A stretch of 64,000 bases of DNA from Alphaproteobacteria bacterium (lineage in GTDB: Bacteria > Pseudomonadota > Alphaproteobacteria > JAAXGF01). Made by a program: the position numbers and the translations under genes. Below, piece by piece: positions 4,811 through 58,623 of the stretch (positions are counted from its first letter, which is position 1; each line of letters begins with the position of its first letter). The notes under the pieces were generated by a model. That model saw only the letters and a program-made list of their open reading frames with translations. It did no database searches and was not told the DNA's origin. The stretch lies in NCBI GenBank assembly GCA_963555825.3, contig CAUVXB020000002.1, positions 512,001 through 576,000 of the forward strand, in the 5' to 3' direction.

Positions 4811-5575
4811 TCAGTTAGCAGTCGGGGTTTGACGCCTGCGGCTCTGGTTGAGCCTGTAGCTGTCACCGTTCATCTCGAGGATGTTGACGTGGTGGGTGAG
4901 GCGATCGAGGAGCGCGCCGGTGAGGCGCTCGGAGCCGAACACCTCGGTCCATTCGTCGAAGGGCAGATTGGTGGTGACCAGGGTCGAGCCCCGCTCGTAG
5001 CGTTGGCTGAACACCTCGAACAACAGCTCGGCGCCGGTCTTCGACAGCGGCACGAAGCCGAGTTCGTCGACGATCAGAAGCTTGTAGGTGGCGAGCTTCT
5101 TCTGGAACCTCAGCAGCTGCTTGTCATCGCGGGCCTCGATGAGTTCGTGGACCAGCGCGGCGGCGGTGATGAAGCCGACCGAGAGGCCCTTCTGGCAGGC
5201 CGCCAGGCCGAGACCGAGGGCGATGTGGGTCTTGCCGGTCCCACTGTTGCCGAGCGCGATGAGGTTCTCGCGGCGCTCGATGTACTCGCAGCGGGCCAGC
5301 TCCAGGACCAGCGCCTTGTTGAGCGAGGGGATGACCTTGAAGTCGAAGCTGTCGAGGCTCTTGACCACGGGGAAGCGCGCCGCCTTGATGCGCCGCTCGA
5401 CCATGCGGCGCTCGCGGTCGATCAGCTCGAGCTCGGCGAGTCTCAACAGGTAGCGGACGTGATCGACGCCTTCCGAGGCGCACTGCCGGGCGATCTTGTC
5501 GTACTCGCGCAGGAAGGTCGGCAGCTTCAGCGTCTTGAGGTGGTGGGCGAGCAGCACTTGCGGTGTGTCGGTCAT
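4811..5575 (-). CDS. istB: IS21 helper ATPase IstB
   Basis: GNSGTGKTH Walker A, IVDELG, LDRLTHH. Confidence 0.95.
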   Translation of the reverse strand: MTDTPQVLLAHHLKTLKLPTFLREYDKIARQCASEGVDHVRYLLRLAELELIDRERRMVERRIKAARFPVVKSLDSFDFKVIPSLNKALVLELARCEYIERRENLIALGNSGTGKTHIALGLGLAACQKGLSVGFITAAALVHELIEARDDKQLLRFQKKLATYKLLIVDELGFVPLSKTGAELLFEVFSQRYERGSTLVTTNLPFDEWTEVFGSERLTGALLDRLTHHVNILEMNGDSYRLNQSRRRQTPTAN

Positions 5576-21845: not shown

Positions 21846-22358
21846 ATGCAGCGCCGCACCCCGGCCAGACGACAGCCGCGCCGCGGCCCGATCATCGTTT
21901 CGGGCGGCCAGACCGGCGTCGACCGCGCCGCGCTCGACGTCTCGCTTGCGCTGGCCCTGCCGTGCGGCGGCTGGTGCCCGCGCGGCCGGCGCGCCGAAGA
22001 CGGCGTCATCGCCGCCCGGTATCCCCTGACCGAAACGCCGCGCACCGCCTATCTGCAGCGCACCGCCTGGAACGTCCGTGATGCCGACGCAACGCTGGTG
22101 CTGCTGCGCCGCGGCCCGACCGGCGGCACGCGGGCGACGATCCGCCTCGCCCGGCGCCGCGGACGGCGCTGCCGCGTCGTCGTCTTGGGTCCGAGCGCTC
22201 GGCCGGGGCCTGTAGTCGGCTGGCTGCGCGCCGCGCGCCCGCGCGTGCTCAACGTCGCCGGGCCGCGCGAGAGCGAGGCGCCGGGCGTCTACCGGGCGGC
22301 GTTCGCCTTCCTGCGAACGGTCCTCGCGGCGACACCGACGAACCGGTCGCGCCGCTGA
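21846..22358 (+). CDS. Putative molybdenum carrier / SLOG-family protein
   Basis: SGGQTGVDRAALD, GGWCP.GR.AEDG, LNVAGPRES. Confidence 0.85.
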   Translation: MQRRTPARRQPRRGPIIVSGGQTGVDRAALDVSLALALPCGGWCPRGRRAEDGVIAARYPLTETPRTAYLQRTAWNVRDADATLVLLRRGPTGGTRATIRLARRRGRRCRVVVLGPSARPGPVVGWLRAARPRVLNVAGPRESEAPGVYRAAFAFLRTVLAATPTNRSRR

Positions 22359-22418
22359 TTTCGCTGGCCAAGCCGAGGCGGCCAGATGCTATGGTGCCGC
22401 CCACGAAAGGAAATCAGA

Positions 22419-22640
22419 ATGCGCTGGATCGCCGCCGCCACCCTTGTGCTGCTGGTCGCCTGCGAAAATCGCATCGTCGAGTCGAGCCCGGCCGGTGTCT
22501 TGATCGAAGGCGGCGAGTTCGCACGCGAAGCCGAAGCGATGGCCAAGGCGCATTGCGCGAAGTACAGCAAGAACTACCAGCTCATGGCGGTCGAGCCGAT
22601 GACGTTTGTCACCTGGATCCACCACTACGATTGCATCTAG
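22419..22640 (+). CDS. Small lipoprotein
   Basis: Lipobox LVAC, AAGGA RBS, further Cys pair (AHCAKY...YDC). Confidence 0.7.
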   Translation: MRWIAAATLVLLVACENRIVESSPAGVLIEGGEFAREAEAMAKAHCAKYSKNYQLMAVEPMTFVTWIHHYDCI

Positions 22641-22678
22641 ACGACGGCATTCAGGGGCCAGGCCGCGGCCCGGAAACC

Positions 22679-22747
22679 GGTGGATAAGTGCATAGGCCTG
22701 TGGATAAATCCGCAAGCACCTGAAATCGCTTCAGAATTAAATCCACA
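22679..22747. promoter_or_regulatory. Cluster of DnaA-box-like 9-mers
   Basis: TGTGGATAA perfect (22699-22707), GGTGGATAA (22679-22687), AAATCCACA (22739-22747), followed by AT-rich tract. Confidence 0.55.
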
Positions 22748-22789
22748 AGAAATTTCAATCCTTTATCGATTATGCCTTGTCTTCGGCAA

Positions 22790-23420
22790 TAGTCCCGGAG
22801 ATAATTTAAATTGCGTGAAAGCGTCGGGGCAATGAATTTCCCGGTAGTATTGACAGTAAACTTTCGGGTTTGTTGTTTTTACCGCCAAGATGTTCAGAGT
22901 TCCGAGACAGACAAGCTCGTTCGCGAGCCTGCCTGTCGGGGGGCGGTCAGGTATTTCGCAAGAAATTCTCGATCGCCGGGCGGTTGATCCGCCTCCGCCC
23001 CGCACCGGGCTGTTCGCCCAACGCCAAGCGGCCTCCGGGTCGCCGACGCGGGCAGGCGAACGGGGATTGCCAAACGCCAAACGGTCTTCGGACCGTCGAC
23101 GCGCCCGGCAGTCGGGTGCCGACCCCTCGGGGACGGTTCCACCCACCGCCACGGAAGGTGCATCCTCGGATGCACCAACCGCTGGCCGGTAGGTCCGGCT
23201 AAGGATGGAATTGGATATCTCGCCTAAGGGCAGCGCGCCTCGCAAGGGGCAGCCGCCTTCATCGCCGACGATGGCTCTTCCCGGGGCACTCGTCCGGCAA
23301 TGAAAACGGCCAGCCGCCTGCCGGCTTTCGCCAACAGGAGTCTGACCGGCTCCAGAGACGCCAGGAGTGTCCCGCCCGGACACGTAGCGTTGGCCTAACG
23401 GCCTCGCTCCTGGCGTCTCG
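22790..23420 (+). ncRNA. Candidate large structured non-coding RNA, family unassigned
   Basis: More than 12 hairpins with UUCG/GCAA/GAAA/CUCG loops, G-U pairs favouring + strand, duplicated module with compensatory changes, no credible ORF. Confidence 0.65.
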
Positions 23421-23456
23421 ATTATTTATCAGGTCTCTCGCTCGAAAACAACAACA

Positions 23457-23643
23457 TATTGTGGTCGGCCCCGAAAAAGCTACAAGGGGTCAACACGGCG
23501 ATCCTGATCGATCGAAATTTTCCGGCCCACGCCAGTCTTATCCCAACAAGAGGGGAGCCGCCGACCGTTCGGCCACGCTTGATCCCATAAGACTGGCATG
23601 CGCGGCGATTGAGCGCAGGTCGCCGTAGGTGACCGCACAAAAT
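23457..23643. repeat. Structured motif, copy X (homologue at 48360-48489)
   Basis: Three identical blocks of 17, 26 and 16 nt shared with copy Y, separated by variable stems. Confidence 0.75.
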
Positions 23644-23675
23644 AACAACCGCACAATGAACGGCCAGACGAGCCC

Positions 23676-24428
23676 CTACCACTGTGACGTCGGCATGACG
23701 ACCAGCTCAGAAATCACGACGTGGGCCGGCTGCTCGAGGGCGAAGACGACGCAGCGCGCGATGTCTTCGGCGTCGAGCAGCGTCTCGTAGCCGTCGTAGA
23801 AGGCGCTGGCCTTCGCCTTGTCGCCCTGCCAGCGGGTCTCGCCGAACTCGGTCCGCGCGGTGCCCGGCAGGATTTCGGTGACGCGGATGCCGGTGCCGAC
23901 GTAATCGGCGCGCAGCGAGGCGGTGAAGCCGTGCACCGCGAACTTGCTGGCGGCATAGATCGTGCCGCCGGCGTAAGCCTTGAAACCCGAGATCGAACCC
24001 AGATTGACGATGTGGCCGCGGTCGCGTTCGACCATGCCGGGCGCCACCGCACCGGTCACGCGCATCAGGCCGGTGACGTTGGTCTCGACGATGCTCGCCC
24101 ACTGCGCCATGTCGCCCTCGTCGAAACGTCGGCGGCCGCCGATGTCGTGGCCCGCGTTGTTGACCAGGATGTCGATCGCGCGCAATTCCTCGGGCAAGCG
24201 CTCGATCAGGTTCCCGGTTGCCGCGGCGTCGGTGACGTCGAGCGTCAGCGGATGGCAGTTCGGCCCGAGCCGCTCGCCCAGCGCGCGCAGCCGATCGAGC
24301 CGGCGCGCCGCCGCGATCACGCGGCACCCCTTGGCGACCAGCGCCTCGGTGATGGCGACGCCGAAGCCCGCGCTGGCGCCGGTGACCAGCGCGACCGCGC
24401 CGGACGCCAGGATCGGCTCGCCGGCCAT
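23676..24428 (-). CDS. SDR-family oxidoreductase (YdfG-like)
   Basis: TGASAGFG, NNAG, YAASK. Confidence 0.9.
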   Translation of the reverse strand: MAGEPILASGAVALVTGASAGFGVAITEALVAKGCRVIAAARRLDRLRALGERLGPNCHPLTLDVTDAAATGNLIERLPEELRAIDILVNNAGHDIGGRRRFDEGDMAQWASIVETNVTGLMRVTGAVAPGMVERDRGHIVNLGSISGFKAYAGGTIYAASKFAVHGFTASLRADYVGTGIRVTEILPGTARTEFGETRWQGDKAKASAFYDGYETLLDAEDIARCVVFALEQPAHVVISELVVMPTSQW

Positions 24429-29849: not shown

Positions 29850-30365
29850 TAGTATCTGTGTCACCGTGTACACAGTACCGACCAATCCAGGAATCCCAGT
29901 AGCTGCCGCCACAATCCAAACTTGATGCTGATTCAATCCGTCGAATTTAACTACACTCACAGTTTGAGTGACAGTTCCTACGTTAATTTCACCGCCTGGC
30001 GTCATAAGTCTAACAACGAAGACAATTTGGTGAGTCGCTGATTGATTAAAGGTACAATTCCACGAGTATGATAATTTATTCGAAGGTAATGACTGTTTCT
30101 GCTTTTGATCTCCTGCGATCGTTAATGCAGCCGCTTGAAGTTCAATCTGAAGGAAGCAATTGTCAATGGAACCTGTGAAAGAACAATTGATCAATTCCGC
30201 CCCTTTGTTGTCCAAAATTCGAATCCCGCGAATCTCATTGGATGTCTCGCTTCCTTCGAAAGTTGGCACGAGCTCAACAATTATATTGTGAGAATTTCCG
30301 TGATAGATTCGTGCCGGTAGGCTAACAAATCCTTTATATGTGATGCGAATGTTTTTCATCTTCAT
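29849..30365 (-). CDS. Low-GC hypothetical protein with C-terminal TM helix; last codons displaced by IS630
   Basis: AT-rich ORF; removing the IS gives a ...QILLGFM* end. Confidence 0.5.
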
Positions 30366-30493
30366 AGGAAATCTGTTTGATTCGCATTTGCGTCAGTTGC
30401 AAATTTTTTTCGTAGTTGGGAATCTGGATCTACGGCTTGTGGTCAGCTTCTATTAATTCGTCAGCTTCTATTGATGAATTAAGTGCTTTAAAC

Positions 30494-30525
30494 CTTGCCT
30501 ATCCGGTTATCACCCACACCCACTA
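30494..30525. mobile_element. Isolated IS1595-type terminal remnant
   Basis: CTTGCCTATCCGGTT..CACCCACACCCACTA matches reverse complement of 16931-16962. Confidence 0.7.
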
Positions 30526-30661
30526 TATGTAGTGTGTCTCCTTGGACTGCAGGCAAGGGCCGGCGCAGGCGCATTGAGGAGGCGATCCGGCTAATTCTTG
30601 ATTGTTCTGAAAACCGAACCGGAGAATTCACGTCACGTACTTAACATCGGGGGACGGAACG

Positions 30662-30970
30662 GTGGCGACCAAGGGAAAAACGAAGAAACCCACGGCCAGA
30701 CGGGAAGCTGCTGATGAAACGACATCGTCTGAGCGATTGACGGCACTAGTCGAAGAAAGCGACGCGCTGGCACGAATCGTTGCGAAGAACCCGTCCGCGC
30801 CTGTTAGTCTCCTGCGCGTTTTGAGTCGCAGCGAAGACGAAGCGACACGCAAGAACGTGATCCTCAATCCGTTTACTCCATATGACGTATTGAGCGAACT
30901 TGAAAACCAGTTCACAGAGCTATTTGTGAATAATCCGGCACTCGAATCCTACAATTCAATGAAGCTCTGA
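30662..30970 (+). CDS. Variant leucine-rich-repeat (LRV)-like small protein
   Basis: VAKNPSAP..LL..LS / V..NP.TP..VL..L repeats. Confidence 0.55.
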   Translation: MATKGKTKKPTARREAADETTSSERLTALVEESDALARIVAKNPSAPVSLLRVLSRSEDEATRKNVILNPFTPYDVLSELENQFTELFVNNPALESYNSMKL

Positions 30971-31223
30971 TTTCCTGGAATATTATATCGGTGTCGTTCA
31001 CCTCCGATTTCAGATAAATTTCAATGAAGTGACGGTCCTTTATGCAACGTGGCGTTTTGCCAAATCCGACTCAATGATTAGGATTTCCACCACGCTAAAG
31101 TGTCGCCTAAAAGCCGCTACAATGCCGTCCGAGTCCCTGCTCGGCATCGCCGGAGATATCTCCGCTTCATAGATGCTCACCTTCAACTTGCACCGAGCTT
31201 TACTCAGGAAAATGGGTCAGCTT

Positions 31224-31568
31224 CTATAGTGGGTGTGAATTAAGTGCTTTAAACATCTTAACGACAGTAATTGGGAAATTCCCGACGAGTACTAAGGCCA
31301 ACGCCAGAATAACCAAATAAACAAAAATCGACATTCTATTGCCATAAACAACCTCATATCGCGTGAAGATCGTAGTTCTTTGATTTACGGTCTCAATTAC
31401 GCGTTTTATCCAATCAAGTACGATGGAATCCCGATGCAGTGGCGTAGCCGATTCTAAGAGCCGGCTTATTTCGAAATCGACTTTCTTAACGTGCGTCCTC
31501 GTGAGCCGCAAAAGTGAAATCGCCGTGGCGAGACAAATAATGCTTGCAAATGAGAGAAAAATTGACAT
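31224..31568 (-). CDS. Low-GC hypothetical membrane protein
   Basis: Two hydrophobic segments, GGGAG RBS. Confidence 0.45.
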   Translation of the reverse strand: MSIFLSFASIICLATAISLLRLTRTHVKKVDFEISRLLESATPLHRDSIVLDWIKRVIETVNQRTTIFTRYEVVYGNRMSIFVYLVILALALVLVGNFPITVVKMFKALNSHPL

Positions 31569-31641
31569 GGCGTCTCCCGTAAACAGTGCGCTCCCAGTGA
31601 AATGGACCCTAGCACAACGCGTAAAGGGCGAGCGGGTATAA

Positions 31642-32816
31642 TACCAGTGAGCCTATGAAATCACCTTCATGATCCATGGATAGGCGCAGAGGGTTCGCAT
31701 ACGATCCGGTTCTGCGATGAGGTCGATCCATGCTTGGCAACAGGCGTCGATGATGGCCTCGGTGTCGTCGAGGACGCGGAGCGATAGGAAGCGTTCGCGT
31801 AGGTAGAGCCAAACCCGCTCGACGGGGTTGAGTTCGGGACTGTAAGGCGGCAACAGCGCCAAGGTGACGTTGTCGGGGACGGTGAGGGCGCGCTCGTCGT
31901 GCCAACCGGCGCCGTCGCACATCATGACGGCGTGCGCATCCTGGTCCAGGGTATCGGCGAAGTGTGCGAGAAACAGGTCCATGACCTTGGCGTTGACGCT
32001 CGGCATCACCAGGGTGACGTCGTCGCCGGTGTCCGGGCGCACGGCGGAGAAGATGTAGGCCCACTGGTAGCCGATTTGACGCGTCCCGGGGGCACGCTCG
32101 CCCCTGCGCCACCACCGGTGACACACCCGGCCCTTGTTGCCGACGCGCGCTTCATCCTGAAACCACAGCTGTAGGCGCTTGTCGGGATGCGCCGCGGCGG
32201 TCGCCTTCAGGATGTCGCGAAGCCCCCTTTTTTGAAGCGCTCCTGCGCTTCGGCGTCCCTTCGCGGGTGGCTCGGGCGCGCCTTCTGGCGGGAAAATCCC
32301 ATCCGCCGTAGAACCCGGGTCATGCTCGAGGGGTGGTAGGTCTTGGCGAAGCGCTCCTCCAGCCAGCGGCACAGATCGGCCCGGGTCCAGGCGCAAACCC
32401 CGTCGCGCTCAGGCTCCGGCCCGGCGATGATGACCGCCGCCAGCGCCGCTTCCTCGTCTGCCGTCAGCCGCCGCGGCGAGTAGCCCTTTGGACGGTCGTG
32501 AAGCCCCTCCAATCCCTTTGCATTGTAACGAACAACCGCGTCGCGAAGCGTTTGGCGATCCATCCCCGCAAGCCGCGCGGCATCAGCCCGGGGCATCTCC
32601 TCCAAAGCATTCGCGATCCCATAGGCCCGCGCCGCCGCTCGACCGTACGATTCCACGCGAGCCCAGCGCCGAAGCTCCAAAGGCGTCAAATCATCCCGTA
32701 TCTTGAGTGCTGATCCCATGACATCCCCCACATCTGGTGGGAGACCATAGAATCACAATCCGCCATCATCCGCCATCAATGAATATCCCGAGAGTCAATT
32801 CAGGCGCTCACTGGTA
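31642..32816 (-). mobile_element. IS630-family element, copy of 13636-14810
   Basis: Identical ORF translations and TIRs, TA duplication. Confidence 0.93.
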
Positions 32817-57862: not shown

Positions 57863-58623
57863 CCGACACACCGCAAGTGCTGCTCGCCCACCACCTCAAG
57901 ACGCTGAAGCTGCCGACCTTCCTGCGCGAGTACGACAAGATCGCCCGGCAGTGCGCCTCGGAAGGCGTCGATCACGTCCGCTACCTGTTGAGACTCGCCG
58001 AGCTCGAGCTGATCGACCGCGAGCGCCGCATGGTCGAGCGGCGCATCAAGGCGGCGCGCTTCCCCGTGGTCAAGAGCCTCGACAGCTTCGACTTCAAGGT
58101 CATCCCCTCGCTCAACAAGGCGCTGGTCCTGGAGCTGGCCCGCTGCGAGTACATCGAGCGCCGCGAGAACCTCATCGCGCTCGGCAACAGTGGGACCGGC
58201 AAGACCCACATCGCCCTCGGTCTCGGCCTGGCGGCCTGCCAGAAGGGCCTCTCGGTCGGCTTCATCACCGCCGCCGCGCTGGTCCACGAACTCATCGAGG
58301 CCCGCGATGACAAGCAGCTGCTGAGGTTCCAGAAGAAGCTCGCCACCTACAAGCTTCTGATCGTCGACGAACTCGGCTTCGTGCCGCTGTCGAAGACCGG
58401 CGCCGAGCTGTTGTTCGAGGTGTTCAGCCAACGCTACGAGCGGGGCTCGACCCTGGTCACCACCAATCTGCCCTTCGACGAATGGACCGAGGTGTTCGGC
58501 TCCGAGCGCCTCACCGGCGCGCTCCTCGATCGCCTCACCCACCACGTCAACATCCTCGAGATGAACGGTGACAGCTACAGGCTCAACCAGAGCCGCAGGC
58601 GTCAAACCCCGACTGCTAACTGA
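57859..58623 (+). CDS. istB: IS21 helper ATPase IstB
   Basis: GNSGTGKTH, IVDELG. Confidence 0.95.
   Translation: MTDTPQVLLAHHLKTLKLPTFLREYDKIARQCASEGVDHVRYLLRLAELELIDRERRMVERRIKAARFPVVKSLDSFDFKVIPSLNKALVLELARCEYIERRENLIALGNSGTGKTHIALGLGLAACQKGLSVGFITAAALVHELIEARDDKQLLRFQKKLATYKLLIVDELGFVPLSKTGAELLFEVFSQRYERGSTLVTTNLPFDEWTEVFGSERLTGALLDRLTHHVNILEMNGDSYRLNQSRRRQTPTAN

Follow-up and report, generated by a model that had tools for sequence, protein, structure and literature searches.

A probable gene for a large structured non-coding RNA, preceded by DnaA-box-like sequences and ending in a Y-shaped domain, in Alphaproteobacteria

The subject of this analysis is an intergenic sequence within a 64-kb window (the whole stretch of DNA that was analysed: 64,000 nt, positions 512,001 to 576,000 of contig CAUVXB020000002.1 of an Alphaproteobacteria bacterium, assembly GCA_963555825.3), which an initial annotation, made from the sequence letters, had proposed to be a stand-alone large structured RNA. 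Our data indicate that positions 22811-23432 of the window, on the + strand, are very likely a stand-alone gene for a structured, stable non-coding RNA of ~560-620 nt, and the founding example of a family absent from Rfam 15. The gene consists of three conserved modules (an array of DnaA-box-like 9-mers, a sigma-70-type promoter and a Y-shaped 3' domain) placed around a body of ~15 helices, many of which are capped by UNCG or GNRA tetraloops and which are organised by two long-range helices. The proposal held up against the checks of Rfam, transcription, covariation and coding capacity described below, none of which overturned it. The wider account, in which the RNA gene has the ends we predict for it, is controlled by DnaA and has an architectural role, is the best explanation overall, and we consider it probable. 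Coordinates are positions in the window unless a contig is named; the genome from which the window comes (G000) is 6.04 Mb in size, is 99.3% complete and comprises two contigs, C1 and C2.

The gap that contains the gene had been described as ~1 kb long and measures 1.03 kb, extending from the stop codon of an 84-aa open reading frame (ORF; 22640) to the stop codon of a minus-strand gene encoding a short-chain dehydrogenase (23676). The longest ORF within the gap (22763-23383, minus strand, 206 aa) had no match in a Pfam search and is not kept open in the homologues (23 sequences examined), and we therefore rejected a coding gene and retained the original statement that the gap holds no credible ORF. 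The longest stop-free run in any of the six frames is at most 134 codons in homologous locus L008 and at most 147 codons in L027, and the indels in an alignment of 25 sequences are of arbitrary length, not multiples of three.

Comparison with known RNA families by cmscan (Rfam 15, 4227 models, presumably including those for OLE, ROOL, GOLLD, HEARO, raiA, RNase P, tmRNA, 6S, SRP and parts of group I and II introns) gave no match at gathering score anywhere in the 64-kb window. At E<=10 over 22600-23700, only four chance-level matches were obtained (16.9-18.8 bits, versus cut-offs of 32-100), and there were no Rfam matches in 15 homologous loci and none at E<=1 in locus L056. ARAGORN detected no tRNA or tmRNA anywhere in the window. 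These null results agree with the earlier observation that the locus carries no RNase P, tmRNA or tRNA signature. Housekeeping RNAs were located elsewhere in the window's genome (RNase P, 274 bits; a two-piece alpha-tmRNA, 262; 6S RNA, 59; signal recognition particle (SRP) RNA, 65), indicating that the locus specifies an additional RNA and not a divergent housekeeping form, and the latter candidate was rejected for this reason.

The + strand of 22790-23420 folds at -318 kcal/mol, compared with -262.4 +/- 7.6 kcal/mol for 20 dinucleotide shuffles (z -7.34), none of which folded as well. The tetraloops on which the initial annotation had relied are present (UUCG at 22863, 22920 and 23087; GCAA at 22958 and 23242; UCCG at 23034; CUCG at 23165), as is the GAAA loop, although at 22818-22821, one base from the position given before (22817). 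The complementary words GTTCGCC (23012) and GGCGAAC (23055) lie where they had been placed, and the perfect 13-bp stem 23355-23367/23407-23419 was recovered as an inverted repeat. Two other proposed multi-branch closures were borne out as words, but neither is supported comparatively as a pairing: that between ATTGCC (23066) and GGCAAT (23296) fails comparatively, as it sits in an insert of 5 of the 25 sequences and clashes with a well-supported hairpin, and that between TTCCA (23137) and TGGAA (23206) has mixed comparative support.

Support for the structure comes from the homologues, which exist and covary. Pair probabilities of single sequences were projected onto an alignment and the best nested set of pairs was taken. 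On a plain MAFFT alignment of 25 non-redundant sequences (A2, not fitted to a structure model), this set comprises 160 pairs in 20 helices and is 78.6% paired, compared with 69.2 +/- 0.4% in shuffles, a control that ignores kinship and in which 0 of 500 replicates reached the observed value. When the partner was slid by 1-3 columns, pairing fell to 36.9-46.6%. Changes on both sides of the pair were found for 104 of the 160 pairs, versus 78.3 +/- 4.0 in the shuffles. For the 3' domain we used a covariance model (R1), and in its model-fitted alignment, comprising 35 distinct sequences, pairing is 89.4% versus 79.0% and 41 of 51 pairs changed on both sides versus 24.8. RNAalifold, applied to the plain MAFFT alignment, recovered 68 pairs, 29 of them with compensatory changes; its result on raw alignments is only partial because MAFFT misaligns the variable hairpins. 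The proposed pairs include 409 G.U cells versus 192 A.C cells, in line with the G-U argument originally made for the + strand. This excess, together with the orientation of the promoter and a T-rich run that follows the terminal stem in most homologues, favours the + strand.

At the 5' end, a 4-bp hairpin with a GNRA-type loop (P1, 22814-22825) is 92.4% paired in 23 sequences. Its bases can alternatively pair with 23323-23336 to form a long-range helix (P0) that closes the entire molecule; P0 has 13 pairs, is 82.4% paired and has 6 pairs changed on both sides. The 5' domain (22825-22977) contains a long, irregular hairpin with a UUCG cap (P2, 22825-22903), a second UUCG-capped hairpin (P3, 22907-22935) and a GCAA-capped hairpin (P4, 22942-22977). 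Its 52 pairs are 79.3% paired compared with 67.5% when shuffled (0 of 500 shuffles reach the observed value), and 40 of them change on both sides, compared with 30.7 expected.

The central domain (22979-23224) is closed by the long-range helix 22979-22988/23215-23224, in which a standard pair is formed in 21-24 of 24 sequences at six of the 7 pairs and in 20 of 23 at the seventh; its covarying pairs are of several types (CG/UG/UA, GC/GU/UA and UA/UG/CG). A local hairpin at 22982-22997 that appears in single-sequence folds was rejected, as it is only 63% paired and the long-range alternative is better. Hairpins within the domain lie at 23015-23058, 23115-23140 and 23149-23185. A hairpin module of this domain has been duplicated in tandem, with 23012-23061 copied at 23066-23108, and among the 25 sequences none but the window and its two nearest metagenome relatives (L036 and L039) carry the extra hairpin at 23066-23108.

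The 3' body (23235-23352) consists of a GCAA-capped hairpin (H-alpha, 23235-23250), a long hairpin (H-beta, 23258-23304), the 3' strand of P0 (23323-23336) and a last hairpin (H-gamma, 23338-23352) that has no single register in alignment A4. When 24 homologous 3' parts were folded singly, they gave the same series of five elements with different letters. The Y-shaped 3' domain that follows (23355-23419) is composed of a 12-13 bp closing stem, hairpin a (GUGUCC-CGCCC-GGACAC, 23367-23383), which is nearly invariant, and hairpin b (23387-23407), whose letters vary. Across the 35 distinct sequences of the model-fitted alignment, distant families among them, pairing reaches 99.3% in the closing stem, 99.5% in hairpin a and 91.4% in hairpin b, and both sides have changed at 6 of 12, 4 of 6 and 7 of 8 pairs, respectively; the covariation of hairpin a in the distant members marks it as a genuine helix. 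In the whole 6.04-Mb genome the hairpin-a word is found a single time. The initial annotation had recognised neither that the 13-bp stem forms the base of a Y domain nor the better-supported long-range architecture. A pseudoknot between the CGCCC loop and a conserved GGGCGG was unsupported, since L010 has a different loop without a matching change, and a hammerhead-like ribozyme at the Y junction was rejected because the core letters of this motif were not seen by eye and Rfam found none.

The RNA locus is single-copy in the window's genome. BLAST searches of the 12 other genomes of the same family found the 3' part in 9 and the 5' flank in several. A first alignment extended over the full ~700 nt, and the RNA can be aligned end to end in 25 non-redundant genome and metagenome loci, which form two clades. 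An exact 22-mer from the most conserved block was found in 13 genome stretches, all from uncultured 'Alphaproteobacteria bacterium' assemblies, in 16 metagenome stretches and in no viral contigs. Model R1 matched 10 of 13 genomes of the order and 12 of 151 genomes of the class, one per family, and in a phylum-wide sample of 151 genomes it matched the window's genome only. Nothing similar to the RNA was found in plasmid and phage collections. Boxes and Y-domain end lie between 570 and 1073 nt apart in the distant loci, indicating that the body varies in size.

Upstream of the RNA is an array of DnaA-box-like 9-mers (22679-22752) with GGTGGATAA (22679-22687) and TGTGGATAA (22699-22707) in the same orientation and a box in the opposite orientation, AAATCCACA (22739-22747), within the conserved word ATCCACAAGAAA. 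Every homologue has two to four direct 9-mers at a spacing of 11-12 nt and one inverted copy 40 nt past the main box, and a distance of exactly 42 nt separates TGTGGATA from TCCACAAGAAA in each of the 23 rows containing both words (among 40 rows, duplicates included). We take TTATNCACA to be the DnaA-box consensus. The 33 upstream regions (~100 nt each) contain 80 matches to it with at most one mismatch, 39 of them perfect, a density of 2.5 per 100 nt versus 0.065 over all fetched loci (~40-fold), and the same arrangement of boxes was found in 10 distant-family loci. A sigma-70-type promoter follows at 22777-22805 on the + strand (TTGTCT, 17 nt, GATAAT, with a T-rich stretch before it); it was the sole promoter-like site returned by a scan of 22300-23900 and has 9 of 12 matches. 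Close and distant homologues alike retain the TTGCA-type -35 hexamer, the T-run in front of it and the distance to the first hairpin. The initial annotation mentions neither the box array nor the promoter, nor a dispersed repeat at the 3' end of the gap that is described below.

The 3' end of the gene is marked by a T-rich tail directly after the terminal stem (GATTATTTATCAGG, 23420-23433, + strand), and the homologue consensus past that stem is CACTTTTTTAGCAG. To judge from these letters, the terminal stem and tail are probably an intrinsic terminator; a simple terminator scan did not call the 3' end because the stem is branched. The predicted primary transcript (22811-23432, + strand, ~620 nt) takes its start from the -10 hexamer and its end from the terminal stem and T-rich tail. 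Past the gene by 17-30 nt lies a near-palindromic conserved word, CAACAAnATATTGTGG (23449-23464), which looks like a protein-binding site. It is confined to the window's clade and is absent from the second clade (L013, L014, L018, L019, L032, L033, L040 and L041).

Sequence from the locus also occurs in RNA libraries: when words were sampled over 22700-23500 (801 nt), about half of them were contained in six runs of such libraries, which come from three studies. We mapped contigs to the locus from three RNA runs, one from each study (X15, X17 and X19), and from one DNA run (X6). A 580-nt RNA contig from X15 covers 22826-23382 and then has 23 further letters, which we take to be Illumina adapter; a 564-nt RNA contig from X19, a different study, covers 22826-23388; and X17, from the third study, contributed many pieces, from 22836 to 23297, with a contig word depth of up to 26,402, a measure that cannot rank expression and was set aside for that purpose. 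Taken together, the RNA-library contigs of the three studies contain 22826-23388; strand, level and true ends cannot be read from them. The DNA contig is unbroken over 22300-23614, and the fact that contigs from two studies begin at 22826, where the DNA contig continues, is a weak hint of a 5' boundary. Two flanking stretches, 22300-22785 and 23434-23541, are without contigs in the three RNA runs and are covered by X6; we rejected this as boundary evidence, as absence in contigs carries no weight.

A different RNA gene lies immediately upstream of the homologue in the second clade (L056:2360-2935, minus strand; also L013, L018 and L041). This gene is 576 nt long, folds equally well (-343 kcal/mol) and is 95% identical between these assemblies. 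With the window RNA it has in common only the kind of box array and of promoter and the Y domain, in the stem of which there are compensatory changes; its body is unrelated, and it likewise lacks an Rfam match. One or two further degenerate copies of the Y domain lie after it. Shared ends around an unrelated body indicate that the box-promoter and Y modules are a cassette of at least two large RNAs.

That result also bears on a reading in which only the ends matter, the Y being a specialised terminator or stability element and the array a specialised promoter, with the ~500 nt between them a fast-evolving GC-rich spacer or small-RNA precursor. The ends are far more conserved than the body, the distance between boxes and Y domain varies (570-1073 nt in distant loci), the paralogue shares the ends alone and is followed by extra degenerate Y copies, and the RNA contigs terminate inside the Y domain, all of which such a spacer would accommodate. 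However, helices of the body (2, 6, 8-10, 13, 14 and 16) keep their position and pairing through many double-sided changes, the closing helix of the central domain is maintained as described above, and 557-563 nt of RNA contig span the body in one piece in two studies; we regard this reading as unlikely. A known RNA (RNase P, tmRNA, 6S, SRP, a group I or II intron, OLE, ROOL or GOLLD, or a transposon guide RNA) that has diverged too far for covariance models to recognise would explain the size class and the tetraloop-capped helices, in which the window RNA resembles several known large RNAs, and Rfam models can miss distant relatives. Yet none of the 4227 models reached its gathering score in the window or in the 15 homologous loci (best match at E<=10, 18.8 bits), the four housekeeping RNAs scored 59-274 bits elsewhere, there is no adjacent reverse transcriptase, transposase or nuclease gene and no flanking exon, and there is no phage or plasmid match, leaving this explanation with very little probability. 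The least probable of the alternatives, to which we assign next to no weight, takes the locus for a structured DNA element that is mobile or derived from a repeat, or else for a protein-coding gene that is decayed or unusual. Repeats abound in the genome, with a ~135-nt dispersed repeat just downstream of the RNA, and the 206-aa ORF is open on the minus strand, but the locus is present in one copy per genome, the unit has no terminal inverted repeats around it (as had been stated before) and no plasmid, phage or viral-contig match, and for these reasons a repeat, mobile, plasmid or phage origin was rejected; the ORF is without Pfam match and conservation, and the alignment indels are not multiples of three.

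The box array raises another alternative, namely that the locus is a DNA-level replication element (an origin, or a DnaA-titrating or -recycling site similar to datA or DARS) and that the folded GC-rich stretch is incidental or a by-product transcript. Consistent with this, phased boxes that match the DnaA consensus lie in both orientations beside an AT-rich stretch of ~70 nt, the homologues contain a DnaA-box cluster (the 80 matches in 33 regions; the window's copy is weak), and the cumulative GC-skew minimum of C2 is at 578,074, just past the window's right end and 43 kb from the locus (534,700). As a rule, the alphaproteobacterial origin adjoins hemE or dnaA, though, and in the window's genome dnaA (C2:1,241,155) and hemE (C2:2,109,600) are 0.7 and 1.6 Mb away, while in five of five distant genomes checked hemE and dnaA are on contigs other than that of the RNA. 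There is no change of skew sign at the locus, the skew curve is noisy in a genome that has 76 identical-score copies of one repeat, and gene neighbours vary between lineages. A replication element would also leave unexplained the maintenance of compensatory and G.U pairs over 600 nt and the RNA-library contigs. An origin of replication as the principal reading was rejected on the distance of hemE and dnaA and the lack of a skew switch, and we consider a DNA-level element in general to be quite improbable. Near hemE in the window's genome there are two one-mismatch boxes and a local GC dip, which is a weak hint, from sequence, of a classical origin there. The boxes at the RNA locus may also titrate DnaA, alongside promoter control.

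Several observations weigh against the interpretation that we prefer, a stand-alone RNA gene under DnaA control. The structure was derived from thermodynamic ensembles of the same sequences on which it was scored and the 35-sequence alignment was fitted to a model, both of which favour structure; the shuffle controls ignore relatedness, and related sequences can beat shuffles without structure. The minus strand folds about equally well (z -6.67), and energy alone does not pick the strand. The RNA evidence consists of assembled contigs, which cannot give strand, level or true ends. These contigs begin 14 nt past the predicted start and stop at 23382-23388, ~45 nt short of the predicted end, which would fit either misplaced predicted ends or processing of the RNA; the ~45-nt shortfall at the 3' end could reflect poor end coverage, breaks in the assembly graph at the invariant block or cleavage at the three-way junction. 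The window's own box array is weak, with a perfect box and two imperfect ones (1 and 2 mismatches), and a protein other than DnaA could read box-like words. Three of the 13 genomes of the order (94%, 93% and 57% complete) had no R1 match, and among the neighbourhoods compared there is no conserved partner gene that would suggest a protein complex.

With a stand-alone RNA gene as the preferred reading, we propose the following model. The transcript would start ~7 nt past the -10 hexamer and end at the Y stem, acting as an intrinsic terminator. DnaA would control transcription, such that the amount of RNA would follow replication and growth state. The RNA would be abundant and architectural, acting as a scaffold for proteins or as an RNA that assembles with itself in the manner of OLE, ROOL and GOLLD, and the invariant hairpin a would be a recognition site for a protein or for another part of the RNA; on this model the RNA would be neither a base-pairing regulator nor a cis-acting leader. 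We regard the mechanism of a DnaA-controlled scaffold as a tentative suggestion. More speculative still, and in our view doubtful, is the idea of a previously unseen class of RNA genes, with at least two unrelated bodies, a DnaA-box and promoter front and an invariant Y domain behind, whose abundant products would couple the state of replication initiation to a cellular process; the coupling might proceed through RNA-only or RNA-protein assemblies or through feedback on DnaA or the replication machinery. On this idea, the transcript may be cleaved within the Y junction, its two pieces staying joined through the 12-bp stem.

The proposed gene shares features with several known systems. OLE is a Bacillota RNA with adjoining partner genes, and its function long went unexplained. 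The window RNA is similar to it in size (~600 nt), in its intricate multi-helix fold and in having a stand-alone gene, but has no Rfam match, is alphaproteobacterial and lacks a conserved partner gene. To our knowledge, OLE has no DnaA-box array or Y-shaped 3' domain. OLE RNA is described as working within a ribonucleoprotein complex (PMC9723947 and PMC12054373), and for ROOL and GOLLD, large and ornate bacterial RNAs without a known function, the formation of homo-oligomers from RNA alone is described (PMC12286853). Like ROOL and GOLLD, the window RNA is large and has many helices capped by stable loops. ROOL and GOLLD often lie in prophages or near tRNA genes, whereas the window RNA has no Rfam match, no tRNA within 64 kb and no phage or viral match. 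DnaA-box clusters outside the origin occur at the dnaA and mioC promoters and at datA and DARS of E. coli, and in B. subtilis. The array described here appears to resemble them: it has several 9-mers that match TTATNCACA, keep a constant spacing, occur in both orientations and adjoin a promoter remote from the origin. We know of no such cluster that drives a large structured stable RNA, and a search of the literature on DnaA boxes and alphaproteobacterial non-coding RNA found no such RNA. CcnA of Caulobacter is a small base-pairing RNA of <200 nt, located at the origin and controlled by CtrA; unlike CcnA, the window RNA is three times larger, does not lie at hemE or dnaA and has another promoter architecture. 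CcnA is an alphaproteobacterial non-coding RNA tied to cell-cycle control (PMC8959179). Finally, the 3' end resembles intrinsic terminators in having a GC-rich stem followed by a T-rich run, and differs from them in that the stem is branched into a three-way junction with a near-invariant hairpin and in that its sequence is conserved across families and between two RNA genes with unrelated bodies. Ordinary terminators are, as far as we know, not conserved in this way.

Large, highly structured bacterial RNAs are rare, and the known ones (RNase P, tmRNA, group I and II introns, OLE, ROOL and GOLLD) have each revealed unusual biochemistry. Within the open literature and abstracts (subscription journals lay outside the coverage), we found no description of such an RNA or cassette. 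On this basis we regard the RNA as a new class, whose size places it, descriptively, with OLE, ROOL and GOLLD. The RNA is found in about a dozen alphaproteobacterial families, mostly uncultured lineages, which would explain its escape from earlier surveys. The presence of a box array in the promoter and of a 3' domain shared with a second large RNA leads to a testable hypothesis that links RNA synthesis to DnaA. The annotation of many metagenome-assembled genomes would benefit from a covariance model of the family, and, given the nearly complete genome, the RNA may be experimentally accessible if the organism is in culture.

The genes around the RNA differ between lineages. In the window's subclade, the short-chain dehydrogenase gene and a gene for a glyoxalase-fold protein are downstream and convergent; elsewhere, a phosphofructokinase gene is upstream in another subclade, and sdhC is upstream and divergent in the second clade. 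The next downstream gene is convergent in the window and in L005, L008, L009, L010, L026 and L036. A cis-regulatory leader or riboswitch was set aside as a candidate, given the convergent downstream gene and the differing neighbours. Upstream in the window, the 84-aa ORF (22386-22640, + strand) starts MRWIAAATLVLLVAC, which resembles a lipoprotein signal that includes a lipobox cysteine; Pfam gave no match to this ORF, and other lineages do not keep it beside the RNA.

The ~135-nt dispersed repeat occupies the 3' end of the gap (23510-23650) and has an internal imperfect inverted repeat (23525-23555/23573-23603). It gave 183 BLAST matches over both contigs of the window's genome, and its contig word depth in DNA run X6 was 1369-2049, compared with 11.5 in the surroundings. 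A second repeated sequence matches the Pfam family Bac_DnaA: besides the real dnaA, there are 76 matches of identical score (40.7 bits, in 301-aa open frames) across both contigs, two of them in the window (4970-5269, minus strand; 58165-58464, + strand), and repeats of ~2.58 kb with 99-100% identity were also seen. These copies are probably the ATPase gene of a greatly expanded insertion sequence. 6S RNA was found twice at identical score (C1:2210609-2210767 and C2:27081-27239), reflecting either a duplicated region or an assembly overlap. Lastly, the GC content of the window is 0.484 at 30001-32000 compared with 0.59-0.72 in its remainder, and this segment may be foreign DNA.

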